Shown: positions 12,248 to 41,105 of the stretch, one piece after another
How positions within the stretch are numbered: the stretch's first letter is position 1
Layout of the letters: every line of letters begins with the position of its first letter
Origin: Sandaracinaceae bacterium
GTDB taxonomy: Bacteria > Myxococcota_A > Polyangia > Polyangiales > Sandaracinaceae
Assembly (NCBI GenBank): GCA_044220955.1
Contig: JBGAQA010000007.1
Span: 47,391-111,390 of the forward strand
Length of the DNA: 64,000 bases
Direction: 5' to 3'
Notes under the pieces: generated by a model
What the model saw: the letters and a program-made list of their open reading frames with translations, nothing else
Databases searched by the model: none
Told to the model about the DNA's origin: nothing
Translations under genes and position numbers: made by a program

Positions 12248-13786
<1,539 letters not shown>

Positions 13787-13790
13787 GGCC

Positions 13791-14213
13791 ATGGCCGACG
13801 TCCTCACCCTCGAGGTCGCCACGCCCCTCGGGCTCGCGCTCACGACGACCGCCGACAGCGTGCAGGCGCCCAGCGTGCACGGCGAGTTCGGCGTGCTGCC
13901 GGGACACCTTCCCCTGCTCGCCGCCGTCAAGCCCGGCGTGCTGCGCTATCGCCTGAGCGGCAAGACGCAGATCGCGGCGGTCAGCGCCGGCTTCGTGGAG
14001 GCCGGGCCGGACAAGGTGCTGATGCTCACGGACGCGTTCCTCGCACCGAAGGACATCGACGCCGAGGTCGTGCGAGGCGAGCTCGAGCGCGCCGAGGCCG
14101 ACCTCGCGAAATACGGGCAGGAGTACGAGGGTCGCGAGTTCGAGGAGCTGCAGCGCCGCATCGACTGGGCGCGGGCGCGCCTGGACGCGAAGGCGGAGGC
14201 TTCTCGCTCGTAG
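13791..14213 (+). CDS. atpC: F1F0 ATP synthase epsilon subunit
   Basis: LEVATP, GEFGVLPGH, AVSAGFVE; immediately after atpD. Confidence 0.95.
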   Translation: MADVLTLEVATPLGLALTTTADSVQAPSVHGEFGVLPGHLPLLAAVKPGVLRYRLSGKTQIAAVSAGFVEAGPDKVLMLTDAFLAPKDIDAEVVRGELERAEADLAKYGQEYEGREFEELQRRIDWARARLDAKAEASRS

Positions 14214-20006: not shown

Positions 20007-20810
20007 ATGCGTCACGCGTTCGCCCTCGTCATCGTGCTCGTGCTCGGACTCGCGCACGCACCCTCGCCCGCATCGGCGCAGTCGCAGGACTTCACGCACG
20101 ACGGGCGCATCTGGACGGCCTTCAACTTCCAGGGGCCGATCGTCGGTGACCTGTTCTTCATCGGCGACCTCGGCTGGCGGATGTACCTCGGGGACATCGC
20201 CCCGATGACCCCGCAGCAGCCGATCGCCCGGGGCGCTCTCGCCTGGCGCTTCTTCAGCCAGCCCGAGCTCGGCACGATGTACGCCGCCCTCGGGTACGCG
20301 TGGCAGCCGAACTGGGGGCGCCCGGGCCTCGTCGGCTTCACGGACGAGCACCGAACGTACGCCGCGTTTCACTGGGACTACACCCACCAGGAGACGGGGA
20401 TCCGCCTCTCGTTCCGGTTCCGCGTCGAAGCGCGCTTCCGCCACCCCGATCAGGGCCTCGAGGTCGGCGTTCGGTTCCGCGAGCAGGCGCGCTTGCTCGT
20501 CCCGCTCGAGAACAGCCGCGTGCTCTTCCTGGTGTTCTGGGACGAGCTCTTCGAGAACCCGCACGACAGCGGTCACACCGCGTACACGGGCGTTTCGATG
20601 GGCATGCAGACCACGCTCTACACCTCGACGTGGCAGAACGCCGGCTTCGACCAGAACCGCGCCTTCCTCGGCCTCGGCGTGCAGGTCATCCCGAGCGTCT
20701 TCCGGGTCGAGGCGGGCTACCTGAACCAGTGGGTGCGCCGCCCGGCCAACACGGCCGGCGACGCGATGAACCACGTGTTCATGCTCCAGACGTATGTGAA
20801 CTGGAGCTGA
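20007..20810 (+). CDS. DUF2490-like outer-membrane beta-barrel protein
   Basis: Signal peptide; DEHR, RFRVEAR, RFR, WDELF, FDQNRAFLGLG, EAGYLNQ; aromatic C-terminus. Confidence 0.75.
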   Translation: MRHAFALVIVLVLGLAHAPSPASAQSQDFTHDGRIWTAFNFQGPIVGDLFFIGDLGWRMYLGDIAPMTPQQPIARGALAWRFFSQPELGTMYAALGYAWQPNWGRPGLVGFTDEHRTYAAFHWDYTHQETGIRLSFRFRVEARFRHPDQGLEVGVRFREQARLLVPLENSRVLFLVFWDELFENPHDSGHTAYTGVSMGMQTTLYTSTWQNAGFDQNRAFLGLGVQVIPSVFRVEAGYLNQWVRRPANTAGDAMNHVFMLQTYVNWS

Positions 20811-20818
20811 ACCGCGAA

Positions 20819-20834
20819 GTCACGAGCGCGTCAC
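20819..20834 (+). promoter_or_regulatory. Putative Pho box upstream of pstS
   Basis: GTCAC at 20819 and 20830 (11-bp period). Confidence 0.6.
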
Positions 20835-20880
20835 GCGAGCGCGATATGTCCCGGCACAGCCGAGCGAGGAGCGAGTAGCG

Positions 20881-21873
20881 ATGAGGAAGATGCACCACCG
20901 TCTGGGAGGGAGCGCCGCCGTCTCGGCGCTCGTGGCAGCGATCGCGGTCGCGTGCAGCGGCGGCCACGGCCGCGGCAGCGAGGGGCCGCCGGAGGCCACA
21001 GGCACGGGCGCGACCGGGGCCACGAGCGCGCGCGGAGCCACGCTGAGCCTGAAGGGCTCGGACACGATGGTGATCCTCGCGCAGCGCTTCGCCGAGGGAT
21101 ACATGCACGCGCACGAGGGCACGACGATCCAGGTGTCGGGCGGCGGCTCCGGCACTGGCATCGCGGCGCTCCTCGACGGGACCACCGACATCGCCGACTC
21201 GAGCCGCCCCATCAGCGAGCGCGAGACCTCCGATCTGGCGACGCGTCAGCACGCGGCGCCCCACGAGACCCGCGTCGCGATCGACGCCCTGGCCGTCTAC
21301 GTCCACCAGTCGTCCACGCTACAGAGCCTCACGATGGAGCAGCTCGCGCAGATCTTCACGGGCGCCGTGACCAACTGGTCCGCCGTGGGCGGCCCCGACG
21401 CCCCGATCGTCCTCTACAGCCGCGAGAACAACTCCGGGACGTACGCGTACTTCAAGGAGCACGTTCTCCACAACGCCGACTTCGCGGCGCAGGCGCAGAC
21501 GCTCCCCGGGACCGCCGCGGTGATCAACGCCGTGAGCCACGATCCCAACGGTATCGGCTACGGCGGCATCGGCTACGCCGAGGGCGTACGCGTGCTCGCG
21601 ATCGCCAGCGGCGGCGATCCGATCGCTCCGACCATGGAGAACGCGCTCAGCGGCGCGTACCCGATCTCGCGCTACCTGCTGATGTACACCGCCGGTGAGC
21701 CCAGCGGGCTCGCCGCCGACTTCCTCGCGTGGGTCGTGACCGCCGACGGTCAGGCGCTCGTCGAGGAGGCGGGGTACTACCCGCTCCCGCGCGACGGCAC
21801 GCTGCCCGCCGTCGCGCCGGCGGCCCCCACGGGGCCGACGCCTCCGCCGCCCTCCGGGGGCGCCGAGTCTTGA
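20881..21873 (+). CDS. pstS: Phosphate ABC transporter substrate-binding lipoprotein
   Basis: AVAC lipobox, KGSDTM, GGGSGTG, SSR, RENNSGT, YPISR. Confidence 0.95.
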   Translation: MRKMHHRLGGSAAVSALVAAIAVACSGGHGRGSEGPPEATGTGATGATSARGATLSLKGSDTMVILAQRFAEGYMHAHEGTTIQVSGGGSGTGIAALLDGTTDIADSSRPISERETSDLATRQHAAPHETRVAIDALAVYVHQSSTLQSLTMEQLAQIFTGAVTNWSAVGGPDAPIVLYSRENNSGTYAYFKEHVLHNADFAAQAQTLPGTAAVINAVSHDPNGIGYGGIGYAEGVRVLAIASGGDPIAPTMENALSGAYPISRYLLMYTAGEPSGLAADFLAWVVTADGQALVEEAGYYPLPRDGTLPAVAPAAPTGPTPPPPSGGAES

Positions 21874-22913
21874 CTCCCGGGGGCGAGGCAGGCGCCGAGG
21901 CCCCGATCGCAGCGCCGTCTGCGACGTCGGCCCCCGCGCGCGCGCCTCGTCCAAAGCTCGGCACCGGCTTCCGCGCGCCCCTCGTCGACCGGATCGCGGA
22001 GGCGTTGATCCGCGTCCTGGCGTTCACCGCCGTCGCAGCCATCGTCCTCATCTTCGTTTTCATCGCAAAAGAGGCGCTCCCGCTCTTCTGGGAGCCCGAC
22101 GCGCAGGAGCACATCGGGGGACTCTCGGGACTCGTGCTCCCGCGCGTGTGGCCCGGGCACACGGAGTCCGCGTACCTCTGGCAGCCCGTCGGCGACGTGG
22201 CGAAGATGAACGTCGTTCCGCTCTTCCTCGGCACGCTCCGCGTGACGACCCTGGCGCTGCTCATCGCCGTCCCGCTCGCGATCCTGGCGGCCATCTACGT
22301 CTCCCAGTACGCACCGGTTCGCCTGCGCGAGATCCTCAAGCCCGCGATCGAGCTGCTCGCGAGCATCCCGAGCGTCGTGCTCGGGTTCTTCTCGCTGATC
22401 GTGGTCGCGACGCTCGTCCAGGACGTCTTCGGCTTGACCTACCGTCTCAACGCGCTCGTGGCCGCGATCGGCTTGTCGATGGCCGTGATCCCGCTGGTCT
22501 TCACCATCGCCGAGGATGCCCTGCGCGCCGTCCCGCGCGAGCTCGAAGCTGCCGCGCTCGCGCTCGGAGCTCGAAAGCACCAGGTCGTCCTGCGGGTCGT
22601 GCTCCCCGCAGCGCTGCCGGGCATCGCGGCCGCCGTGATCCTCGGGCTCGGTCGGGCGATCGGCGAGACGATGGTCGTGCTCATGGCATCCGGGAACGCC
22701 GCCGTCATGGACGTGATCTCGCCAGGGGCCAGCGCGCGCACCGTCACCGCCACCATCGCCTCCGAGCTCGGCGAGGTCACCCAGGGCGACGCCCACTGGC
22801 GCGTGCTCTTCTTGCTCGGCGCCGTCCTGTTCCTCGTGACCTTCGTGCTCAACCGCGCCGGCGCGGTCATCGTCGAGCGGCTGCACCAGCACCTCACGGC
22901 GGGACGTCGCTGA
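21870..22913 (+). CDS. pstC: Phosphate ABC transporter permease
   Basis: ELLASIPSVV, RAIGETM; TTG start overlapping the pstS stop (start uncertain). Confidence 0.93.
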   Translation: MTPGGEAGAEAPIAAPSATSAPARAPRPKLGTGFRAPLVDRIAEALIRVLAFTAVAAIVLIFVFIAKEALPLFWEPDAQEHIGGLSGLVLPRVWPGHTESAYLWQPVGDVAKMNVVPLFLGTLRVTTLALLIAVPLAILAAIYVSQYAPVRLREILKPAIELLASIPSVVLGFFSLIVVATLVQDVFGLTYRLNALVAAIGLSMAVIPLVFTIAEDALRAVPRELEAAALALGARKHQVVLRVVLPAALPGIAAAVILGLGRAIGETMVVLMASGNAAVMDVISPGASARTVTATIASELGEVTQGDAHWRVLFLLGAVLFLVTFVLNRAGAVIVERLHQHLTAGRR

Positions 22914-22914
22914 C

Positions 22915-23817
22915 GTGCGCTACACGAGCGCGGACTGGATCCTGGCGGGGCTCTCGCTCCTCGCCGTGGTGATCATCCTCGGCACGACGGGTGTGCTGCT
23001 CGGCCAGGTGATCGTCGAGGGGGCGCCGCACCTCTCCGCGACGTTCCTCACCGAGTCTCCGACCGCCGACATGATGGGCGGCGGCATCTTCCCGGCGATC
23101 TACGGGACGGTCTTGCTGACGCTCCTGATGACCCTGGTCGGGGTGCCGATCGGAGTCGCCACGGGGATCTACCTCGGCGAGTACGCGTCACCGCGCTCTG
23201 CGATCGCGTCGACGATCCGGGCGGCCGTCCAGAACCTCGCCGGGGTGCCCTCCATCGTGTTCGGCCTCTTCGGGCTGGGGTTCTTCGTGATGTTCGTCGG
23301 ACGAGGGCTCGATGGGCTCCTGTATCTCCCGGGCGAGGGCCCGGTGTGGGGCCAGCCGGCCGTGATCTGGTCGTCGCTGACGCTCGCGGTGCTGACGCTG
23401 CCCGTCGTCATCGTCACGACGGAAGAAGCGCTCCGGAACGTCCCGCGCGATCTGCGGCTGGCGGCGCTGGGTCTGGGTGCCACGCGCTTCCAGACGCTCG
23501 TCCGTGTCGTGTTGCCCAACGCATCGAGCGGCATCCTCACGGGCGTCATCCTCGCCGTGAGCCGGGGCGCCGGCGAGGTGGCCCCGATCATCTTCACGGG
23601 TGCCGCGAACTTCCTGCCCTATCTGCCGACGGATCTGCGCGACATGTACATGCACCTGGGCTATCACGTGTTCGCGCTCTCGACGCAGAGCCCCAACGTG
23701 GACCAAGCCCGTCCGGTCCTCTTCGCCACCGTCACGGTGCTGCTCGTGCTCACGTTCTCGCTGAATCTGGTCGCGGTCGTCTTGCGCAGCCGTACCCGCG
23801 CGAAGTACGCAGCGTGA
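22915..23817 (+). CDS. pstA: Phosphate ABC transporter permease
   Basis: NLAGVPSIVFGLFG, RGAGEVAP. Confidence 0.93.
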   Translation: MRYTSADWILAGLSLLAVVIILGTTGVLLGQVIVEGAPHLSATFLTESPTADMMGGGIFPAIYGTVLLTLLMTLVGVPIGVATGIYLGEYASPRSAIASTIRAAVQNLAGVPSIVFGLFGLGFFVMFVGRGLDGLLYLPGEGPVWGQPAVIWSSLTLAVLTLPVVIVTTEEALRNVPRDLRLAALGLGATRFQTLVRVVLPNASSGILTGVILAVSRGAGEVAPIIFTGAANFLPYLPTDLRDMYMHLGYHVFALSTQSPNVDQARPVLFATVTVLLVLTFSLNLVAVVLRSRTRAKYAA

Positions 23818-23820
23818 CGG

Positions 23821-24600
23821 ATGAACCAGACTCCCCAGACGGCTGCGCCGCTGAAGGTCGAGACGCGTGACGTCAGCGTGTTCTACGGCGACAAGCGCGC
23901 GATCTCGAAGGTCACGCTGCCGATCGGCGAGAACCACGTCACGGCGCTGATCGGCCCGAGTGGCTGTGGCAAGTCGACGTTCCTGCGCTCGCTCAACCGC
24001 ATGAACGATCTCGTCGATGGCTGCCGCGTGGAGGGGACGATCCTCCTCGATGGCGAGGACATCTACGCGAGCAAGGTCGATCCGGTCGAGGTGCGTCGTC
24101 GGGTGGGCATGGTGTTCCAGCGCAGCAATCCCTTCCCGAAGAGCGTGTTCGAGAACGTCGCCTTCGGCCTGCGCATCCATGGCGAGAAGCGCGAGTCGGT
24201 GCTCGCGGAGGCGGTCGAGAAGTCGCTCCGCGGCGCCGCGCTCTGGGACGAGGTGAAGGATCGGCTCGACGAGTCGGCCCTCTCGCTCTCGGGGGGTCAG
24301 CAGCAGCGTCTCTGCATCGCGCGCGCGCTCGCCATCGCTCCCGAGGTGATCCTCATGGACGAGCCCGCCTCGGCGCTGGATCCGATCGCGACGGCCCGTA
24401 TCGAGGAGCTGATTCGCGAGCTCAGCGAGAAGTACACGATCATCATCGTCACCCACTCGATGCAACAGGCCGCGCGCGTGAGCGACTTCACCGCCTTCTT
24501 CTACATGGGCGAGCTGATCGAGCACGGCGAGACCAATCAGGTCTTCACGCGGCCGCGCGAACGAAGGACCGAGGACTACATCACCGGCCGATTCGGCTGA
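23821..24600 (+). CDS. pstB: Phosphate ABC transporter ATPase
   Basis: [32 protein letters not shown]. Confidence 0.97.
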
Positions 24601-26895: not shown

Positions 26896-27933
26896 ATGTC
26901 GATTCGTTACGAGATTCGCGCCGCGACGTCCGCCGACCATGCGGACCTGCTGGAGCTCGCCCGCTACCTCGACTCGGTGAACCTGCCGAACGACGCGGCG
27001 ACGATCGCCCAGATCCTCGATCTGTCGGAGCGCAGCTTCAACGGCGAGATCGGCGACCCGCGCCGCGCCGAGTACGTGTTCGTTCTGCGCGATCTCGAGG
27101 CCAAGCGTGCGGTCGGGACCTCGATGGTCATCGGGCAGCTCGGTCGCCGCGACGCGCCCTACATCTACTTCGACGTCCACACCGAGGAGCGATACTCGCA
27201 GACGCTCGATCGGCACTTCAGCCACGAGGTCCTCTCGATCGGGTACTCGTACAACGGCCCGACGGAGATCGGTGGCCTGGTCGTGCACCCCGACGCCCGC
27301 CGCGCGCCGGAGCACCTCGGCATGCTCATCTCGTACGTGCGCTTCCTGTGGATCGCCGCGCACCGCGACCTCTGCCAGCCGCGCGTCCTCGCCGAGCTCC
27401 TGCCGCCGCTCGAGCCGGATGGCACTTCCCACCTCTGGGAGGCCGTAGGACGCCATTTCACCGGCCTGACCTACCGCGAGGCCGACCGTCTCTCGAAGAA
27501 GAACAAGGAGTTCATCCGGGGCCTGTTCCCGGACGGCGACATCTACGCCTCCCTCCTCGGACCCGAGGCCCGCGCGGTGATCGGGAAGGTCGGCAGCCAG
27601 ACCCGCGGCGTCGAGAAGCTCCTGAAACGAATCGGATTCCGCTACTGGGATCGCGTCGACCCCTTCGATGGCGGCCCCCATTTCGTCGCCCAGGCCGACG
27701 AGGTGACCCTCGTCCAGCGGACGCTCCGCGTCCAGGCGAGGGCCGCGGGTGCGGACCTCCGCTCGGCGCCGCGCTGTCTGCTGGCCATCGAGCACGAGGG
27801 GGCGCCGTTTTTCCGTGCAATTCCGACGCCCTTTCGGCCTCTGTCGCCCTCGACCATCGAGGTGCCGCGCGACGCGCTCGCGCACCTCGGACTCGCCTCC
27901 GGCGCCGCTGCGATCTCCCTCCCCCTCGATTGA
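26896..27933 (+). CDS. astA: Arginine N-succinyltransferase
   Basis: NLP, YVFVL, GPTEIGGL, S..RFL, AEL, LLKRIGF, VDPFDGGP. Confidence 0.88.
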   Translation: MSIRYEIRAATSADHADLLELARYLDSVNLPNDAATIAQILDLSERSFNGEIGDPRRAEYVFVLRDLEAKRAVGTSMVIGQLGRRDAPYIYFDVHTEERYSQTLDRHFSHEVLSIGYSYNGPTEIGGLVVHPDARRAPEHLGMLISYVRFLWIAAHRDLCQPRVLAELLPPLEPDGTSHLWEAVGRHFTGLTYREADRLSKKNKEFIRGLFPDGDIYASLLGPEARAVIGKVGSQTRGVEKLLKRIGFRYWDRVDPFDGGPHFVAQADEVTLVQRTLRVQARAAGADLRSAPRCLLAIEHEGAPFFRAIPTPFRPLSPSTIEVPRDALAHLGLASGAAAISLPLD

Positions 27934-28148: not shown

Positions 28149-28491
28149 GCGCCCCCTTCCACTGAAGAGCCGGTCCCCTTCGTTCGGCTCCCGACCAGCA
28201 GAAGTTGACGTGGAGAGCAATCTCCGCTAGGCTCCTAAGCCCCCGAGACGGCGCCCTCGACAAGAGGTTTGCCATCTCCTCGGTCCTTGAAAACCGAATC
28301 GGACGACTCCGTGATTGAATTCACGGGTCCCGCATCTCGAAAGAGATGCACGGTCTCTCGAAAGAGAGATTGTCGAGTAAGAGCAACGAGTTCGACTCGA
28401 GGCACTCACCTTCGATGGTGACGGTCACGAGAAGAGCTTGGGTCTCGCTCACAGTAGGCGGTTCCGACTTCGGTCGGAGCTACCAAGAATC

Positions 28492-30054
<1,563 letters not shown>

Positions 30055-30290
30055 CGAATACTGATTCTCGGCTCTTCGGAGCGACGGAGAACAGTCAGCT
30101 CGGTCAAGCCCGTCGAATCTCTAGAGCTTCGAGCTCGAAATCACAAAAGTCGTCCGGTCCGGTTTTCAGGGGCCGATCCCGTCCGCCCGCCGCCTCAATT
30201 TCCCCGAGGCTGCCGGCCAAAGAGACGGATCGCTCCTTGAAACGATGGAACCCTCACGCCCCGATCCACCGATCTGGGCGATTCGCATCC

Positions 30291-30364
<74 letters not shown>

Positions 30365-30376
30365 CTCTGGACCTCC

Positions 30377-30449
30377 GGGGTTGTAGCTCAGCTGGGAGAG
30401 CACCGGCTTTGCAAGCCGGGGGTCACCGGTTCGATCCCGGTCAGCTCCA
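30377..30449 (+). tRNA. tRNA-Ala(TGC), CCA not encoded
   Basis: Acceptor GGGGTTG/CAGCTCC with G3:U70, anticodon loop TTTGCAA. Confidence 0.97.
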
Positions 30450-30717
30450 TCAGGGTCTCCATCGACACGAGTCGTTCTCTGGTCTTCCTTCACGAGCTCC
30501 TCTCGAGCTGGTGAGCGAAGACGAGGCATCGCCTCGGTGGCTCTCTGAAAACTGAATATGGAAGTGTGTTGCTGAATCGGTCCAGGCATCTCCTGGGCTG
30601 GTTCTGTAGACGAGTCTATGGCGCGACACCGCGGCGAGTCGGCGGAGACCCATCGAGAGATGGAGCTCTTGCGACGAACCCCGGTCTCGAGTCACGACGC
30701 GTGCCTTAGGGATAATT

Positions 30718-33678
<2,961 letters not shown>

Positions 33679-33888
33679 ATCTCTAAGGCAAACGTCAGAT
33701 TCGAGATCGGGGTTGGGAGTAAGAGCCGTTGCGCCACCGCGAGGTGGAAACGAGCCGCTCTCGGCCCCGCGGTACCTCCAGACGCTGGTTCTTCGGAACG
33801 GCGGGAGGGCGCACACGAGCTCGAGACGACAGGTGACTGTCCAATCTCCGAGCCGTGTAGACGAGTCGAGAGACACACTTCCGCATCT

Positions 33889-34004
33889 TCCGGTGGCAAC
33901 GTCGGAGGGGCCATACCCGATCCCATCCCGAACTCGGAAGTCAAGCCCTCCAGAGCCGATGGTACTGCTCGCGTGAGTGAGTGGGAGAGTAGGACGCCGC
34001 CGGG
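33889..34004 (+). rRNA. rrf: 5S rRNA
   Basis: CCCATCCCGAACTC, GCCGATGGTACT, GGGAGAGTAGG; terminal stem. Confidence 0.97.
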
Positions 34005-34013
34005 TCTATCTTC

Positions 34014-34053: not shown

Positions 34054-34095
34054 CCGTCTCGCGCTTTGCGCGCGGCGTGGTAGCCGTGGCCGGAA

Positions 34096-35349
34096 ATGAG
34101 CGAGCATCCCTACTTCTTCACCTGGGCGGCACAGCGCGGCGCGGTGCCCCAGGAGATCGTCGGCGGTGAGGGTGCGAGGTTTCGGACCGCTGACGGGGCC
34201 ACGTGGCTCGACTTCGCATCGCTCTCGTACCAGGCGAACCTGGGGCACGGCAACCAGCGGGTCATCGACGCGATCAAGCGCCAGGCAGACGCGCTCCTTC
34301 TGACCACACCCGGCGGCGCCTATCCGGCCAAGACCGCCCTCGCGCGGCGGCTTCTCGAGAAGGCGCCGCCCGGGTTCACCAAGGTGTTCTTCACCCTCGG
34401 CGGCGCGGAGGCGACCGAGAACGCCCTCAAGATCGCGCGGATGGTGACCGGGCGCCACAAGCTCGTCGCGCGCTATCGCAGCTATCACGGGGCCTCGATG
34501 GGCGCGCTCAGTCTGAGTGGGGACTACCGGCGGCCGCCGCTCGAGCCGGGCCTGGTCGGTGTGGTCCACGTGCTGGACTGCTACGAGTCACGGCTCGCGG
34601 GAGGCGCGCGAATCGTCGAAGGCGGCGGCTCCGCAGAGGCGCTCGGTCGAACCTTGGAGCTCGAGGGCCCTCGGTCGGTCGCCGCGGTGTTCATCGAGCC
34701 GGTGCCCGGCGCGAACGGGGTGCTCGTGCCGCCGCGCGGCTACTGGGACGAGGTCCGCGCCGCGTGCGACCGGCAGGGGACCCTGCTGGTGGCCGACTGC
34801 GTGCTCGACGGCTTCGGGCGCCTCGGAGCGTTCTACGGGTTCGAGGCGATCGGCGCCGCCGCCCCGGACCTGATCACGATCAGCAAAGGCCTGACCGGCG
34901 GATACGCGCCACTGGGGGCGGTCCTCGTTCACGAGCGCGTCGCCAGCTTCTTCGAGGATCACGTCCTCTACGCCGGGCTCACGTTCTACGGGCACCCACT
35001 CGGCGTCGCCGCCGCGCTCGAGGCGATGGCGGTCTACGACGACGAACAGCTCGTCGCACGGGCTCGCATCCTCGGGGACCGCCTGCGCGCGGCCGTCGAG
35101 TCCATGCAGGACCGGCACCGCGGCCTGATCCTGCGGACTCGCTCGCTCGGCCTGCTCGCGGCCATCGAGCTCGACGTGGACGACGCGCGGTTCGGGCGGC
35201 TCGAGCGCGAGCTGGCTGGCCGGCGCCTGATGACGCATCCGAACCGGCGCATCCGCACGCTGATCGTCTCGCCGCCGCTGGTCGTACGCGAGGACGAGCT
35301 CGACGAGGGTCTCGCCGCGCTCGAGGCGTCGCTGCTCGCCTCCGCGTGA
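34096..35349 (+). CDS. Class-III PLP aminotransferase (omega-amino acid type)
   Basis: GGAEATENA, YRSYHGAS, IEPV, ADCVLDGFGR, PDLITISKGLTGG with an intact PLP Lys (codon 34885). Confidence 0.92.
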   Translation: MSEHPYFFTWAAQRGAVPQEIVGGEGARFRTADGATWLDFASLSYQANLGHGNQRVIDAIKRQADALLLTTPGGAYPAKTALARRLLEKAPPGFTKVFFTLGGAEATENALKIARMVTGRHKLVARYRSYHGASMGALSLSGDYRRPPLEPGLVGVVHVLDCYESRLAGGARIVEGGGSAEALGRTLELEGPRSVAAVFIEPVPGANGVLVPPRGYWDEVRAACDRQGTLLVADCVLDGFGRLGAFYGFEAIGAAAPDLITISKGLTGGYAPLGAVLVHERVASFFEDHVLYAGLTFYGHPLGVAAALEAMAVYDDEQLVARARILGDRLRAAVESMQDRHRGLILRTRSLGLLAAIELDVDDARFGRLERELAGRRLMTHPNRRIRTLIVSPPLVVREDELDEGLAALEASLLASA

Positions 35350-35397
35350 TGCTTCGGCCGGGTGCGTGAGCTGCGGGGCGGTCTATGCTCACGTGTG

Positions 35398-38300
35398 ATG
35401 CCCATCGCAGGTGACTACATCGGCGGTGCGTTCGTGCTCGCCGAAGGCGAGAGCCTCGTCTCCCGGAATCCGTCCAAGGGTTCGTCCGTCGTCGTGGAGA
35501 CCACGTGGAGCGACGTGCAGGTCGGGCGGGCGGTCGTGGCGGCGAGCGAGGCACAGCGCAGCTGGTCGCGGCTCTCGCTCGACGATCGCTGGGCGGCGCT
35601 GGTTCGTTTCCGCTCCGCGATCGAGCAGCGCAAGGAGAGGCTCGCGGACGCGATCGTGCAGGAAATCGGCAAGATCCGGAGCGAAGCGCGGACGGAGATC
35701 CAGACGCTGCTCGGCCGCTTCGACGTCACGGCGGGCGTCGTTCGCGGCGAGCTGCGCGATGGCCCGCTGCCGGGGTTCCCCAACGAGGCGCTGCGGTGGC
35801 ACCCGCACGGCGTCGTCGGCGTGATCGGGCCGTTCAATTTCCCGCTCCATCTCTGCCACGCGCACGTCGTGCCGGCGCTGCTGCTCGGGAACACCGTCGT
35901 GGTGAAGCCCAGCGAGCTCGCGCCGCTCTGCGGCGTTCGGTATGCGGAGGCTGCCCACGCGGCGGGGCTGCCGCCGGGCGTGCTCAACGTGGTGCAGGGC
36001 CGGGGCGCGACCGGGGCGGCGATGGTCGCCCATCCCCGGGTGCATGGGCTGGCGTTCACGGGAAGCTGGCCGGTGGGGCGGCGCATCGCCGAGGCGGCGC
36101 TCGATCGGCCGGAGATGCTGGTGGCGCTCGAGATGGGCGGGAAGAACACGGCGATCGTGTGTCAGGACGCCGACGTGCGGCAAGCTGCGCACGAGATCGT
36201 CGTCGGGGGCTACCTCACCACCGGGCAGCGCTGCACGTGCACCGACCGCGTGCTCGTGCACCGGGCCAAGAAGCGGGCGCTGGTCGATGCGCTCCGCCCT
36301 CTCGTCGCGGGGCTGGTGTTCGGCGATCCGGACGACCCGCTCGCTTTCGCGGGCCCCCTCGCGAGCGAGCCAGGGCGCGAGAAGCTCGAGGTCGCGATGG
36401 CCGCTGTCGAGCGCGCCGGCGCCGAGTGCGTCGTCGAGGGCAAGCGGCTGCAAGGCGGTGTCTTCAGGACCGCGTCGTTCCACGTCCTGCCGGACGGGCT
36501 CCATCACGTGCCGGGATACACCGACGTGGAGCTCTTCGGCCCCGATCTCGGCATCGAGACCTTCGACGACGACGACGAGGCCGTCTCGCTGATCGACGCG
36601 TCCCCCTACGGGTTCGCGAACAGCGTCTTCACGGGCGACGACGCGCGCTTCGATCGCTACTACAGGGACACACGGGTCGGGATCCTCAACCGCAACCGCT
36701 CGACGAACCAGGCAAGTCCGCGCCTCCCGTTCGGGGGGACCGGCCGGAGCGGGAACTTCCGCCCGGCGGGGAGCTTCGCCGCGCGCAACCTCGCGATCCC
36801 CGTGGCCGTGCAGTCGAACGTGGCGGGCGCGTTTCCGGTGCTGTCGGCGCTGCGCGCTACGCTGATCACGCCGGACCTCGACGAGCTCGAGGCGCATCAC
36901 GAGCGCGAAGAACGGGCCGACGCCGCGCGCACTCTCGTCGATCGACCGCGACCGGTGGCGTTGCACCGACCGGTCGGTGGGTCCCTGCCGCGCTCGTCCG
37001 CGCTTCTCGAGCGCTTCCACGCGAGTGATCGGACACCGCGCGAGCAGCAGCCGTCGGTGTTCGATCATCTGCGCAGCCATGGGCCCTGGCACGTGTCCGT
37101 GGATGACGAGCCGCTCTCGGTGCTCGATGCGTCGAGCCAGATGGCGATGCTGCCACTCGGGTTCATGCACGAGTCGATGGTGCGCGCGTACGTCGATGGC
37201 GCCTTCGGCACCGCGGCCCTGCGCTCGTCCGATCTGCTCGACGGGCACGGCGAAGGCGCTCGCTTCGCCGCTGCATACGCGGACACGCTGCGTGCGCTCG
37301 TTCCCGGGTACCCGACGGTCGCGTTCACCGCCTCGGGAGCGGAGGCCAACGAGAAGGCGTTCGTCCTCGCTCGCGCCCACACCGATGCGCTCGGCTGGCG
37401 GGCGACGAAGCTGCTCGCGTTCGAGGGAGGCTTCCACGGGCGCTCGCTCCTCGCGCTCCACGCGAGTCACGCGGCCGCCCTGCGGGAGGCCTCCGAGCTC
37501 CCTGGATACGAGGTGGACTTCGCGCCTTTCCCGTGTTGCGACGACTCCCACGGCTTGGAGCCGCCGGAGCCGGAGGGGTTCCGGGAGCTCTGCGGGCGCG
37601 GGGAGGTCGACGCGCTCGTCGCTCGCTTCGGCACGGTCGAAGATCCCCTGCTCGCTGCCGAGGTAGCCTCACTCGCGCACGTCGCCCGGCTCGTCGCGGC
37701 GCGCACGCACTTCGCCGTGGTCGTGGAGCCGATGCAGTCGGAGGGCGGCGAGCGCTACGCCACGGCACGGTTTCACCGCGGCCTCCGGCTCGTGACACGT
37801 GCGCTCGGTGTGCCCTTGATCGTCGACGAGGTGCAGTGCGGCTTCGGAATCGGTGGGCCCTTCGTGTGGCACGCGTCGTTCGGCTACGTGGATCGGGTGG
37901 GCGCTCCCGATCGGCCCGACGCGATCACGTTCGCCCAGCGTGCCGAGGTGGGCGTCGTGATGAGCACGCTCGCCGACGTCGAGCCGACACAGACCTTCGC
38001 CGCCTCGCTCGTGCGCGGCCGTCTGCACGCGCTCCGGATCGCCGAGACCGACGAGGCCCACCGCGTCGAGTCGCTCGTGCGACCGAAGCTGGCCGCGCTC
38101 GCCCGCAGCTGGGGCCACCGAATCGCGCGGCCCCGCGCGTGTGGGTTCACGCTGGCGTTCGATCTCGCTTCGCCAGCAGAGCGCGATGCGTACGTCGGAC
38201 AGCGCCTTTGGCGTGGTGCGATGGTGGTGGCCGCGGGCGAGCGTACCGTCCGGTATCGCCTCGGGTCGGCCTTCGGCGAGCGCGAGATCGACCAGCTCTT

Positions 38301-40038
38301 CACGGCAATCCGCCAGTCGCTCGCGTGGCTGGAGGCACACCCGGGGAAGGAGCCCCCCGCGTGGGAAGACCTCGACACGCCCCGCCCGACCGAGGGTGAC
38401 GCCGGGATCCGGGTGCGAGAGATCGGCGCCGACGAGGTGCTCGTGGTCTTGCCCCAGATCCTCGCGCTGGAGGGTCGAGCCCACGACCCTGCGCACCGTG
38501 CGTCGGAGCGACGCCTGCGCGCGGGTGTCGAGGATCCGGACGGCGTCGTGATCGTCGCGGAGCGCGTCGCCGAAGGTCGCGCCGAGATCGTGGGCCACGC
38601 GATCGGCGTGCCGCTCGAGCGCGCGTCGGAGGACGTCGGGCCCGACGAGGATCCGGCGCACGGGAAGCTCGACACGCTCTACTCGGTGGCGCTCACCGTC
38701 GATGCGCCGCTCCGCGGATCGGGCATCGGCCGCCGCCTGAAGACCGCACAGCTTCGGGCCGCCGGCGACAGGCGCTCTGCCGACGGTTCGCCACGCTATC
38801 GCTTCCTCGCGGGCCGAGAGGAGCTCGGGCTGGTCGGCGCGACGGCGCGCCTGAACGACGCGCTCGGCGCGCACACCCTGTTCTGCGTCGCAGGCTCTTC
38901 CGACGCCGATCCGCCCCAGCGCTACTACCGCCTTCCGCTGCGGCCGATCGCGTCCCACGATGCGCCGGCTGCGGTCGCTTCGCCGGGCACGTCGTCGGGT
39001 CTGGTCACGCCACTGGCGCAAGCACCCGCGTCGCTCGTGCGGGCCGAGCGCGACGGGCAGCTCACCGGTCCGGCGGTGCAGAAGATCGCGCTCTGCGACC
39101 ACGTCACCCCTGCGATCGTGCGCGCGACCGAGTGGGTGACGGCGATCGCGCCCGACCATCCGCATCTCTTCTTCGCCTCCGGACGCGACGAGACGATGGA
39201 CAAGACCCTCGGACTGCTCCGTTTCCACCGCAGGCAGGGGCGCGTCGTCCTCGGACTCGCCGGCGGATACGTGGGCCACACGACGGCGTGTGCGCGCTCG
39301 ATCAGCGATCCGGAGGTGCACGCCGGAGGGCCGGCGCACTTCGAGTTCCCGCGGATTCCCCACCCGGCGGAGGTGGGTGAGGTCGCGTCGATCGAGGGGC
39401 TCCGCGAGAGCATCGCTGCGGTGGGCGCGAAGGCCGTTCTCGGCGTCGTCGTCGAGATGGTGCAAGAGCGGACCGGGCGCGTTCTCTCGGACGCCTTCGT
39501 CGACGCGCTCGACGGGCTGCGGCGCGAGACCGACGTTCCGATCGTCATCGTCGAGACGGCCAGCGCTTGCTACCGAAGCGGGCGCGGGCCCTTCGCGAGC
39601 AGCGCGCTCCGCGCGCGATTCGTCCCCGACGCCCTCGTCTGGTGGACGGGCGGGCAGCTCGGGCTGGTTCACGTCACGAGCAGGCTCTGGGTCGCCGCCC
39701 CGCACGTGTTCTCGTCGCGCTGGGACGGCGACGAGCTCTCGCTCGTGCAGGCCCACCACCAGCTCCGGGCAGCGCGGCGCGTCGACGTCCGGGTCGCGAG
39801 CGATGCGCTCGATCGGGCACTCGCGCCGCTCGCGCGGCTCCGCGTGGACGGCCTCGGCCTGTACCGGGTCGTTCACGCCGGCGCGCAGGCCGCCGCCCTC
39901 GTCGCGACGCTGGCGACCCACGCCGTGCGCACGCACGCGCTCCCGAACGGGGGAGTGCCGATCGCGCCGCCGCTCGATCGTGCGCTCGCCGACGCGTCCG
40001 CGCTCGCCCTCGGAATCGCCGCCTATCCCAGGCGTTGA
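35398..40038 (+). CDS. Four-domain fusion: AstD-like aldehyde dehydrogenase + class-III aminotransferase-like + GNAT + degenerate class-III aminotransferase
   Basis: GPFNFP, LEMGGKN, GQRCT, ELFGP, PFGGTGRSGNFRP; SGAEANE, FHGRS, EPMQSEGG, DEVQCG; LRGSGIG; GGYVGHT, VEMVQE. Confidence 0.85.
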   Translation: MPIAGDYIGGAFVLAEGESLVSRNPSKGSSVVVETTWSDVQVGRAVVAASEAQRSWSRLSLDDRWAALVRFRSAIEQRKERLADAIVQEIGKIRSEARTEIQTLLGRFDVTAGVVRGELRDGPLPGFPNEALRWHPHGVVGVIGPFNFPLHLCHAHVVPALLLGNTVVVKPSELAPLCGVRYAEAAHAAGLPPGVLNVVQGRGATGAAMVAHPRVHGLAFTGSWPVGRRIAEAALDRPEMLVALEMGGKNTAIVCQDADVRQAAHEIVVGGYLTTGQRCTCTDRVLVHRAKKRALVDALRPLVAGLVFGDPDDPLAFAGPLASEPGREKLEVAMAAVERAGAECVVEGKRLQGGVFRTASFHVLPDGLHHVPGYTDVELFGPDLGIETFDDDDEAVSLIDASPYGFANSVFTGDDARFDRYYRDTRVGILNRNRSTNQASPRLPFGGTGRSGNFRPAGSFAARNLAIPVAVQSNVAGAFPVLSALRATLITPDLDELEAHHEREERADAARTLVDRPRPVALHRPVGGSLPRSSALLERFHASDRTPREQQPSVFDHLRSHGPWHVSVDDEPLSVLDASSQMAMLPLGFMHESMVRAYVDGAFGTAALRSSDLLDGHGEGARFAAAYADTLRALVPGYPTVAFTASGAEANEKAFVLARAHTDALGWRATKLLAFEGGFHGRSLLALHASHAAALREASELPGYEVDFAPFPCCDDSHGLEPPEPEGFRELCGRGEVDALVARFGTVEDPLLAAEVASLAHVARLVAARTHFAVVVEPMQSEGGERYATARFHRGLRLVTRALGVPLIVDEVQCGFGIGGPFVWHASFGYVDRVGAPDRPDAITFAQRAEVGVVMSTLADVEPTQTFAASLVRGRLHALRIAETDEAHRVESLVRPKLAALARSWGHRIARPRACGFTLAFDLASPAERDAYVGQRLWRGAMVVAAGERTVRYRLGSAFGEREIDQLFTAIRQSLAWLEAHPGKEPPAWEDLDTPRPTEGDAGIRVREIGADEVLVVLPQILALEGRAHDPAHRASERRLRAGVEDPDGVVIVAERVAEGRAEIVGHAIGVPLERASEDVGPDEDPAHGKLDTLYSVALTVDAPLRGSGIGRRLKTAQLRAAGDRRSADGSPRYRFLAGREELGLVGATARLNDALGAHTLFCVAGSSDADPPQRYYRLPLRPIASHDAPAAVASPGTSSGLVTPLAQAPASLVRAERDGQLTGPAVQKIALCDHVTPAIVRATEWVTAIAPDHPHLFFASGRDETMDKTLGLLRFHRRQGRVVLGLAGGYVGHTTACARSISDPEVHAGGPAHFEFPRIPHPAEVGEVASIEGLRESIAAVGAKAVLGVVVEMVQERTGRVLSDAFVDALDGLRRETDVPIVIVETASACYRSGRGPFASSALRARFVPDALVWWTGGQLGLVHVTSRLWVAAPHVFSSRWDGDELSLVQAHHQLRAARRVDVRVASDALDRALAPLARLRVDGLGLYRVVHAGAQAAALVATLATHAVRTHALPNGGVPIAPPLDRALADASALALGIAAYPRR

Positions 40039-40074: not shown

Positions 40075-40635
40075 GTGTCCGAATTGCCCGAAGTCCCGCC
40101 CGAGGTTCCGTCCGAGACCGCGGCTGCTCCCGCGTCGCGCCTCACCTCGCTCGCGCTCGAGACGGCGCGCGTTCTCGTGGTCGGCGCGTGCCTCGGGCTC
40201 GGGTACGGGATCGTCGGGGGTGTCCCCTCCGTGATCGAGTTCCGCACCGCGGCTTCGTGCGCCCCGCCGGTCGAGGCCCACCCGGAGATCGGGTGGATCG
40301 AGCAGGACGATGCGCGCGCGCTGGTGGACGACGTGGACGTGGTCTTCGTCGATGCGCGCTCGCTCGCCGACTACGAGCGGGGTCACATCCCGAACGCGAT
40401 CGCGATGCCCATGGACACGGGCGCCATCGAGGAGTCGACGGCCGCCCTCGTCCGCGGGGCGCACACCGTCGTCGCCTACTGCGACACGTCTGCCGAGTGC
40501 GCGAGCAGCCGCCGCCTGGCGAGCCTGCTCAGCGAGGATGGTGCAGGCGACGTGCGCGTGCTCCGCGGCGGCATCCCCGAGTGGCTGTCGAACGACTTCC
40601 CGGCGGAGTCGGGACCTTGCCGGGTGTGCCCGTGA
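40075..40635 (+). CDS. Membrane-anchored rhodanese-like protein
   Basis: N-terminal TM; FVDARS..Y..GHIPNA, VAYC, LRGGIPEW. Confidence 0.88.
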   Translation: MSELPEVPPEVPSETAAAPASRLTSLALETARVLVVGACLGLGYGIVGGVPSVIEFRTAASCAPPVEAHPEIGWIEQDDARALVDDVDVVFVDARSLADYERGHIPNAIAMPMDTGAIEESTAALVRGAHTVVAYCDTSAECASSRRLASLLSEDGAGDVRVLRGGIPEWLSNDFPAESGPCRVCP

Positions 40636-41105
40636 GCGAGCTCTCCACGCGCCTCGCCTCACCGGGCGGGCGGGCGCTCATCGTCGTCCTCCGACTCGTC
40701 GTGGCGGCGGTCTTCCTCGGCGCGGCCCTCCCGAAGATCGCCGACCCGAGCACGTTCGCGACCGACATCGACAACTACCGCATGGTGCCCGACGCGCTGA
40801 TCGGGCCCCTCGCCGTCGGCCTGCCCCTGCTCGAGGCGCTGGTCGCGGTCGCGCTCGTCACTGGCGTGCACGCACGGGGTGCGGCCATCGTGGCGAGCGG
40901 GATGCTGCTCGCGTTCGCGGTCGGGATGGTGCAGGCGATCGTGCGCGGAATCGACCTCGACTGCGGCTGCTTCGGGCACGTCGTCGAGACGCGCGTGAGC
41001 TGGCTGACGGTGACTCGCAACGTCGTGCTCACGATCGCATGCGGACCCGTCGTGCTCGGGCCCGATCTGCCGCTCTGGCCGCTGCGCCGCGCCGCGTCGC
41101 GCTGA
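40632..41105 (+). CDS. MauE/DoxX-family membrane protein
   Basis: Four TMs, KIADP..F, LPLLE, GIDLDCGCFG, TRN; GTGA overlap with the rhodanese stop. Confidence 0.88.
   Translation: MSELSTRLASPGGRALIVVLRLVVAAVFLGAALPKIADPSTFATDIDNYRMVPDALIGPLAVGLPLLEALVAVALVTGVHARGAAIVASGMLLAFAVGMVQAIVRGIDLDCGCFGHVVETRVSWLTVTRNVVLTIACGPVVLGPDLPLWPLRRAASR

Follow-up and report, generated by a model that had tools for sequence, protein, structure and literature searches.

What does a gene encode that joins four enzyme domains in one frame, is such a gene real, and does it still work where it was found? The question was raised by 64,000 nucleotides of DNA from a Sandaracinaceae bacterium (assembly GCA_044220955.1, contig JBGAQA010000007.1, positions 47,391 to 111,390), the whole of which is called the window here. 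A gene on its + strand, 35398..40038, fuses an aldehyde dehydrogenase (ALDH), a class-III aminotransferase (AT1), a GNAT acyltransferase and a second aminotransferase fold (AT2). An earlier note on the sequence had read it as an assembly line for basic amino acids or polyamines. The results below indicate that the fusion is real, that its two aminotransferase halves are predicted with high confidence to share one active site in the intact family members and that the copy in the window is a partly degenerate member of a conserved family.

The fusion gene and its family

The frame is unbroken, starts with ATG and gives a product of 1546 amino acids (aa) in the open reading frame (ORF) reading of the window; an alternative in-frame start, GTG at 35362, would give 1558 aa. 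Pfam recognised Aldedh at aa 15-459 and Aminotran_3 at aa 550-974 of the window protein. The ALDH domain occupies 35398..36837, and the borders of AT1 (36985..38334), GNAT (38407..38940) and AT2 (38992..40005), all on the + strand, were set by hidden Markov models (HMMs) built from family homologs. The single uninterrupted ALDH-AT1-GNAT-AT2 frame described in the earlier note was thus upheld by Pfam and by the family HMMs, and the catalytic Glu in LEMGG and the Cys codon at 36232 to which it pointed were found to be E245 (36130) and C279 (36232), both present in 120/120 homologs listed.

A protein search with the fusion gave 515 matches among 7991 scored candidates, and a further search gave 662. 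The possibility that homologs are always separate genes was not borne out, since 119 of the 120 homologs listed from the 515 matches align over 94% or more of the query, with identities of 52-77%; names among them include Sandaracinus, Haliangium and Kofleriaceae. The fusion was found in 31/32 genomes of the Sandaracinaceae, a set whose tallies take in one unpublished genome (G029) on which no claim depends alone. Stop codons revealing an artefact were not seen either: metagenome contigs from other studies showed no frame-breaking difference in the fusion ORF among the matches listed. Full-length homologs, family-wide presence and independent contigs rule out an assembly artefact or a chance fusion, and the fusion ORF is confirmed as real.

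An AT2 profile matched 26/251 genomes of the phylum, and these are the module genomes of the counts given below. When 1.84 billion representatives were searched with a profile, 193 matches had E <=1e-30. Among newly listed proteins of at least 850 aa (n=73), AT1 and AT2 were present in 73/73 with GNAT between them in 72/73, and related loci reach down to 30% GC. In distant lineages the AT1-GNAT-AT2 core occurs without ALDH, and several lineages encode the ALDH by a gene of its own, either next to the core or at another place. The unit that is conserved comprises AT1, GNAT and AT2. As the ALDH can be encoded separately, the architecture proposed earlier stood, but obligatory channelling of the semialdehyde is not implied by it. 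A free-standing AT2 gene was looked for, and the short matches were mostly contig-end fragments, while the 7 on long contigs that were checked start inside a domain. In a quick tree (63 rows) all AT1 sequences grouped together, as did all AT2 sequences, both with support 100 and with subgroups that correspond, which is consistent with one old fusion. Both clades sit on the side of the class-III tree that holds lysine epsilon-aminotransferase (LAT) and GABA transaminase (GABA-T), and the tree leaves their sisterhood unsettled. Databases mislabel members of the family as PutA or plain ALDH.

In one genome (G020, L043 / L003) an in-frame TGA lies at fusion aa 974, between AT1 and GNAT; the resulting ALDH-AT1 and GNAT-AT2 may be genuinely separate genes, remains of a pseudogene or the product of an error. 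A gene of the D-Ala-D-Ala ligase family lies directly 5' of the module in six low-GC loci (L171, L172, L173, L176, L198 and L200; two of them HMM-tested), which may be plain synteny.

Active site residues of the two aminotransferase halves

AT2 has a class-III aminotransferase fold (HMM against PDB, LAT E 6e-16) and AT1 and AT2 aligned to each other with an hhalign probability of 99.2. In the intact members, AT1 carries the catalytic Lys (K353), both Args, the Glu and DEVQ in 121/121 and the [ST]W loop in 0/121, and its alignment with LAT has a 14-residue deletion where the STW loop sits. AT2 carries S-T-W, and K741 and N746 of the second trans loop, in 121/121, with a Lys near the catalytic position in 0/121. 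As family features, AT1 thus has the Lys, FHGR, DEVQ and a Glu/Arg switch but no STW loop of its own, and the lysine-less AT2 retains the trans loops NKxxxN and STWDGD. The pattern extends to 58 distant members, with the AT1 Lys in 57/58 and the AT2 Thr in 56/58.

In LAT, according to an excerpt of PMC9780415, one subunit contributes Lys300, Arg170, Glu243, Arg422 and Asp271, while its partner provides Asn328, Ser329 and Thr330. AT2 aligns to exactly the loops supplied by the partner, which are those deleted from AT1. The equivalents of K300, R170, E243 and R422 are kept by AT1 (each 121/121 in the family; the window copy is without the Lys) and those of S329, T330 and W331 by AT2. Losses run together as well. 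The Lys is lost in four sequences (the window protein, P0013, P0038 and P0244) and the Thr is lost in the same 4/4, compared with 0/118 Lys-bearing close homologs; one distant degenerate protein, P0232, keeps the Lys and has Ser for Thr. Because AT1 and AT2 have lost complementary residues, they are predicted with high confidence to be a single-chain pseudo-dimer with one shared active site. The intramolecular pseudo-dimer of the earlier note therefore gains residue-level evidence, from the complementary losses and the LAT alignment. Its description of the second fold as eroded held for the fold but not for the erosion: AT2 appears to be a conserved half, predicted to supply the trans part of the active site, and not simply eroded.

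LAT (TIGR03251; M. tuberculosis Rv3290c, PDB 2CIN) was the best structural and profile match of AT1, at 170 bits against 156 bits for eukaryotic GABA-T (HMM against PDB). For AT2 it was the best match over the full length (62 bits), ranking behind another transaminase that matched only in part (74 bits). Foldseek of the predicted core also ranked LAT first, in agreement with the earlier comparison of AT1 to lysine epsilon-aminotransferases. An AlphaFold (AF2) model of the intact stand-alone core P0121, from 121 rows, had a pLDDT of 93.8 and a pTM of 0.94, and this single-chain pTM suggests a fixed arrangement of AT1 and AT2. Neither half passes the LAT cut-off, a score of 116 bits standing far below the required 521. 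LAT acts on free lysine as a homodimer with two active sites, whereas the present family divides the residues between two unlike halves of one chain with a GNAT inserted.

Both the Arg that binds the carboxylate in LAT and the Glu/Arg switch are conserved in AT1, which suggests an omega-amino acid as the substrate and 2-oxoglutarate as the acceptor; free polyamines, included among the substrates suggested earlier, are unlikely for the same reason. LAT Asn328 is replaced by Val/Ile in AT2 (121/121) and four extra basic residues, K61, K62, K201 and R202, are near-invariant. These changes, together with the AstD-like ALDH, suggest that the substrate is N-acylated, probably succinylated.

To our knowledge, the conversion of a homodimeric pyridoxal phosphate (PLP) enzyme to a one-site single chain by complementary loss has a precedent only in serine palmitoyltransferase. 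SPT1/SPT2 are a fold-type-I pair with one half lacking the lysine and with one site, as predicted here, and an excerpt of PMC6148460 describes the Coccolithovirus enzyme as a single chain with the lysine half first. Unlike the present family, serine palmitoyltransferase belongs to the AOS subfamily and not to class III, has other chemistry and has no inserted GNAT or fused ALDH, and its origin is independent.

The aldehyde dehydrogenase and acyltransferase domains

The ALDH was closest to AstD, with 283 bits against 212 for the next family in one comparison, and again in NCBIfam (355-365 bits against 199 for succinate semialdehyde dehydrogenase, SSADH), as the earlier note had proposed. Its scores lie below the AstD cut-offs (TIGR03240, 355.5 against 579.3; PRK09457, 365.2 against 514), although these are still the best families. 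Aligned to 4KNA and 5U0L, it contains HLxxxH, LEMGG, GQRCTC and SGNxRP, AstD-type motifs that were chosen from this alignment itself.

The GNAT assignment was likewise sustained: the fold matched NatA (VIA Z 18.8; 152 residues with rmsd 2.0), and an intact member was recognised by Pfam Acetyltransf_1 (1.7e-6), with a value of 0.95 in the ESM Atlas. The nearest folds are N-alpha acetyltransferases, with the top Z-scores tied. When GNAT domains (n=45) were compared with NCBIfam at E 0.01, AblB/YodP was absent among the matches, though almost no model matched at all.

Conserved neighbours of the fusion

Clustering of neighbouring genes gave the order [ALDH]-module-C45 hydrolase-AT3-ScoA-ScoB. AT3 is a class-III beta/omega-transaminase (PRK06062-like) whose best PDB match is taurine:2-oxoglutarate aminotransferase, a beta-amine enzyme; in the window it lies at 34096..35349 on the + strand. 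In 20 loci outside the Sandaracinaceae, ScoA was present in 18, AT3 in 16 and C45 in 12. Among 69 metagenome loci, many of which end at contig ends, 28 had module-level matches, with C45 in 18, AT3 or a PRK06917-like (YodT-like) aminotransferase in 17 and ScoA/B in 18. At one locus (L184) the neighbours are a PRK06917 aminotransferase, C45, ScoB and a divergent thiolase. At some loci, M20, MlrC or amidohydrolase genes replace C45 or accompany it. Inside the Sandaracinaceae the operon genes are mostly scattered: only 8/20 loci include C45 and AT3, but C45 is in 27/32 and AT3 in 29/32 genomes. A strong C45 ortholog was found in 13/24 module genomes against 1/30 others.

A gene resembling lysine 2,3-aminomutase (KamA-2) was present in 26/26 module genomes, among which kin do not count as independent, and lies 10 bp 5' of the fusion in one locus (L181/G167). 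It scores about 260 bits on TIGR03820, under the cut-off of 525, and its clade of 460-490 aa proteins passes no specific NCBIfam cut-off. Its neighbourhoods in 20 further genomes held no other pathway genes. Most Sandaracinaceae genomes have two KamA-family paralogs and genX elsewhere (L150, L151).

The domains and neighbours together probably make up a protect-transaminate-oxidise-deprotect module for a diamino acid, to judge from the sequences.

Degenerate copies of the fusion

Sites were called invariant when 95% or more of 115 homologs agreed, a set from which five visibly deviant sequences had been excluded. The window protein changes 0/146 such sites in the ALDH, 14/142 in AT1, 8/31 in GNAT and 5/73 in AT2. 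For the reference homologs, in the same order and with gaps counted, the medians are 1, 1, 0 and 0 and the maxima 8, 15, 22 and 4, a few other family members deviating too. The AT1 changes include K550Q, K551Q, K695L and K847Q, the last replacing the PLP-binding lysine (K in 118/120 homologs listed) by Q847 (CAG, 37936..37938). The family Ser-Thr-Trp loop of AT2 (LAT S329-T330-W331) reads S1440-R1441-W1442 (39715..39723), that is, T1441R. The GNAT motifs YEPARR and GRNR are eroded, and GNAT dN between the window copy and its congeners is 0.29-0.37 against 0.05-0.22 among the congeners, with dS between congeners of 0.44-0.93.

In same-genus genomes a C45 (Ntn) deacylase gene of about 1.1 kb separates the rRNA operon from AT3. 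The corresponding junction in the window, 34058..34096, lacks this gene, and no match to it was obtained elsewhere in the window's genome (G000, 88% complete). An intact second fusion copy was also searched for in this genome and not found. Contigs from other studies bridge the junction without an insert and carry both Q847, with the same codon, and R1441: X3 record 23 has 0 differences over 37871-38139, and in X2 record 16 and X3 record 24 all listed differences lie outside the two sites. This agreement of independent metagenome contigs rules out sequencing error at K847Q and T1441R. AT3 (0/84 invariant sites changed), KamA-2 (0/152), ScoA (1/64) and ScoB (0/69) are unaffected.

Thus the losses in the window genome comprise GNAT, AT1, AT2 and C45 together, i.e. 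the protect-transaminate-deprotect set. It is very unlikely, judging by these residues, that the window copy retains aminotransferase or acyltransferase activity, and its product likely works only as an ALDH. Assays of the proposed activities on this copy would fail, the PLP lysine, the trans threonine and the GNAT motifs being lost. Since the frame remains open over more than 1000 codons, either the decay is recent or the dead domains keep a structural role. Survival of the ALDH may reflect a role as AstD; against such a role, the genome has AstA but no match to AstB. A PRK05769-type omega-aminotransferase beside an ALDH resembling pyrroline-5-carboxylate (P5C) dehydrogenase was found elsewhere in it (L153, G000:C99:24782-27522), at 69% GC against 72.5% for the genome. 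No ortholog of this pair was found in 10 relatives (best 37-42% identity), leaving G000 alone among 11 family genomes. The best PDB match of the aminotransferase is 7VNO, which we take to be PH1423. PH1423 is listed as an ornithine/lysine omega-aminotransferase in a table of PMC9986279. The pair may be an unprotected bypass.

Other members have decayed differently. P0013 has lost its GNAT by deletion and has a dead aminotransferase; in P0038 and P0244 the aminotransferase is dead and the GNAT intact. In a further genome (G010, L056) the GNAT is eroded and the aminotransferase intact. Such partial natural knock-outs (G000, G010, P0013, P0038, P0244) reveal which domains act together. P0026, P0029 and P0040 keep the PLP lysine and the GNAT and have altered pocket motifs in both halves (FHGVT/FHGTT; PHALxxTWDG), possibly for a new substrate.

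A proposed route for beta-lysine and its alternatives

An N3-acylated beta-lysine is favoured as the substrate because it fits every gene, in gene order. A KamA-type aminomutase would make beta-lysine and the GNAT would add an acyl group, probably succinyl, at N3, where it would keep the C6 aldehyde formed later from cyclising onto N3 to a pyrroline. Succinylation likewise blocks aldehyde cyclisation in the arginine succinyltransferase (AST) pathway. AT1, with its Lys, PLP, an Arg for the C1 carboxylate and the Glu/Arg switch, and the STW and NKxxxN loops of AT2 would then remove the C6 amine with 2-oxoglutarate as acceptor, and the AstD-like ALDH would give N-acyl-3-aminoadipate. The C45 hydrolase would deacylate this, AT3 would beta-transaminate 3-aminoadipate to 3-oxoadipate, and CoA transfer by ScoA/ScoB followed by a thiolase would yield succinyl-CoA and acetyl-CoA. 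The usual order module-C45-AT3-ScoA-ScoB is the proposed reaction order.

Each of these steps is read from the genes. That intact members acylate beta-lysine at N3, transaminate the epsilon-amine and oxidise the semialdehyde, on an exact route to 3-oxoadipate, is put forward at slightly short of an even chance. That the whole is a new aerobic lysine route (lysine, beta-lysine, N3-succinyl-beta-lysine, 3-aminoadipate, 3-oxoadipate) with recycling of succinyl-CoA is suggested a little more tentatively still. The logic of acylation, transamination and oxidation in the earlier note therefore stood, and its basic amino acid substrate was narrowed, the operon pointing to beta-lysine.

Several findings weigh against the N3 route. 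In 11/24 module genomes there is no C45 ortholog, only weak paralogs. In PDB, ScoA/B come nearest to acetoacetate-type succinyl-CoA:3-oxoacid CoA-transferase (SCOT), and none of the matches is named as a 3-oxoadipate enzyme. KamA-2 also occurs in 67/225 genomes without the module, is mostly unlinked to it (adjacent in 1 of the loci examined) and may supply beta-lysine for elongation factor P (EF-P), genX being present in 5/5 genomes tested. AT1 scores nearly as high on eukaryotic GABA-T as on LAT (156 against 170 bits), and neither the acceptor nor the donor of the GNAT could be deduced from PDB, NCBIfam, the Atlas or fold comparison. Finally, the GNAT motifs, C45, AT3 and KamA-2 are gone from G010, a genome of 5.1 Mb (96% complete) in which AT1/AT2 and the ALDH remain. 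The N3 route accounts for this solely through a second role of AT1/AT2 and the ALDH as AstC/AstD, in a genome with AstA present and AstB absent.

The G010 pattern is what acetylation of beta-lysine at N6 predicts, and it fits exactly. The N6-acetyl-beta-lysine pathway of Pseudomonas B4 is reportedly due to Barker's work, and its enzymes are said to have been orphans since the 1970s. The GNAT would acetylate N6, AT3 would give 3-keto-6-acetamidohexanoate, ScoA/B and a thiolase would lead to 4-acetamidobutyryl-CoA, and C45 would deacetylate, leaving AT1/AT2 as a GABA transaminase and the ALDH as SSADH. KamA, the beta-transaminase and the 3-oxoacid CoA-transferase are used equally well, SCOT-like ScoA/B fit, and stretches of AT1 resemble GABA-T (SQIxS, QSEGGD), with a hydrophobic residue where GABA-T has F351. 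The PRK06917 aminotransferase that stands in for AT3 in L184 and L185 belongs to the family of YodT of the B. subtilis kamA operon. The non-consecutive steps 2, 7 and 8 would however have to share one chain, with GNAT held between the aminotransferase halves in 72/73 distant full-length members, and AT3 would be intact in G000 though its flanking steps, GNAT and C45, are gone. The ALDH is AstD-like and not GabD-like, and a search for a keto-acid cleavage enzyme (PF05853) gave none in 3/4 intact-operon genomes, each 97-100% complete. We regard the N6 route as rather doubtful.

The G010 losses would also fit acetyl-protected catabolism of diamines, which would let G000 keep AT3 and ALDH. Putrescine or cadaverine would be acetylated by the GNAT and converted by AT3 and the ALDH to the acetamido acid; C45 would free GABA or 5-aminovalerate, to be finished by AT1/AT2 and ALDH. 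Wider PDB neighbours of AT3 include putrescine and polyamine:pyruvate transaminases, and in one genome (G169) the ALDH sits with AT3 and ScoA/B, away from the module. This scheme leaves KamA-2 in 26/26 genomes and the kamA-fusion operon unexplained, would require the 3-oxoacid CoA-transferase to act on glutarate and does not agree with an ALDH that is AstD-like and not an aminoaldehyde dehydrogenase. It is very improbable.

A possible link to arginine and ornithine succinylation

An astA-like gene for an arginine/ornithine succinyltransferase lies in the window at 26896..27933 on the + strand, and its product possibly feeds the ALDH acting as AstD. Such a gene is present in 16/26 module genomes and is not a fixed partner of the module. 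Among the Sandaracinaceae genomes AstA occurs in 30/32 and AstB in 14/32; the common astA without astB may serve ornithine succinylation or another role. The window genome gave no match to AstB or to PF04952 (AstE). In 5/5 family genomes with both AstA and AstB, the fusion ALDH is the only AstD-like gene (355-390 bits, other genes scoring no more than 252) and nothing scores above the AstE cut-off; it is probable that the fusion ALDH doubles as AstD for arginine/ornithine in the family.

These genomes favour a role of the AST type for the whole fusion, in which ornithine or L-lysine would be acylated at N2, transaminated at the omega position (as by AstC/LAT), oxidised (as by AstD) and released by C45 in place of AstE as glutamate or 2-aminoadipate. 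That would account for the fusion and for C45, and it agrees with the frequency of AstA in the family, with the likeness of the GNAT to N-alpha acetyltransferases and with sister ALDHs directly 3' of astA in other families (L121, L122). The extra omega-aminotransferase of G000 resembles an ornithine/lysine enzyme. There would, however, be no job for AT3 or ScoA/B, the most constant neighbours. AstA was not found in 10/26 module genomes, AstB is present in only 14/32 family genomes, and the module never adjoins astA or astB in the loci read, save for astA across the rRNA operon in the window's genus. As the main function this is unlikely; AST-type action on ornithine or lysine may be a second function beside the N3 route. 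The patchy AstA and AstB and the locus readings rule out a fixed link of the module to astA/astB. Nor is the window locus an ast operon, as it lacks a complete astA, astB, astC, astD, astE set. At L122:4606-9411 an aminotransferase-astA-astD-like operon is followed by a small gene that is amidinotransferase-like by eye, possibly a non-AstB dihydrolase.

Relation to known systems

The AST pathway resembles the present one in acyl protection, omega-transamination, semialdehyde oxidation and deacylation, with AstD a close relative of the ALDH. It differs in that the GNAT is unrelated to the AstA family by Pfam, the aminotransferase is of the LAT clade and not AstC, the deacylase is C45 in place of AstE, and the operon here goes on to a second transaminase and a CoA-transferase. 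The N6-acetyl-beta-lysine pathway (Pseudomonas B4; B. subtilis kamA-yod) has the same kinds of parts as the operon. The kamA-yod operon comprises an aminomutase, a GNAT, a class-III aminotransferase, CoA-transferase A/B and a deacylase, and we know of no LAT-like pseudo-dimer or AstD-like ALDH in that pathway. For B. subtilis, a portion of PMC6522883 reports KamA activity and describes kamA and yodT as SigE-controlled and uncharacterised in vivo.

A literature search of open papers gave no description of the ALDH-AT1-GNAT-AT2 architecture, of the operon or of a 3-aminoadipate route, in line with the earlier statement that no characterised protein of this architecture was known. The parts are of known kinds, the unusual enzyme architecture is well supported and the proposed pathway is clearly bounded. 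If the predictions are true, this would be the first class-III aminotransferase to work as a single chain with one site and to contain its own acyltransferase, in a family spread from myxobacteria to lineages of 30% GC, and lysine breakdown would be joined to the beta-ketoadipate end game. The six-gene operon makes a catabolic pathway of predatory bacteria open to experiment: it may encode a new route from beta-lysine to 3-oxoadipate, or it may supply the genes for a beta-lysine pathway with orphan enzymes. The intermediates 3-aminoadipate and 3-oxoadipate are relevant to adipate and nylon.

Other genes in the window

Directly 5' of AT3 lies an rRNA operon (about 28350-34010, + strand), recognised from sequence, with a GC content of 57-58% and 94% identity to congeners; it holds the same position in same-genus genomes. 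Directly 3' of the fusion, a rhodanese-domain gene and MauE/DoxX genes (40075-41105) are conserved in the genus only. Further upstream, genes for the ATP synthase beta and epsilon subunits (12263-14213) and a phosphate-type ABC transporter operon (20007-24600) were observed.

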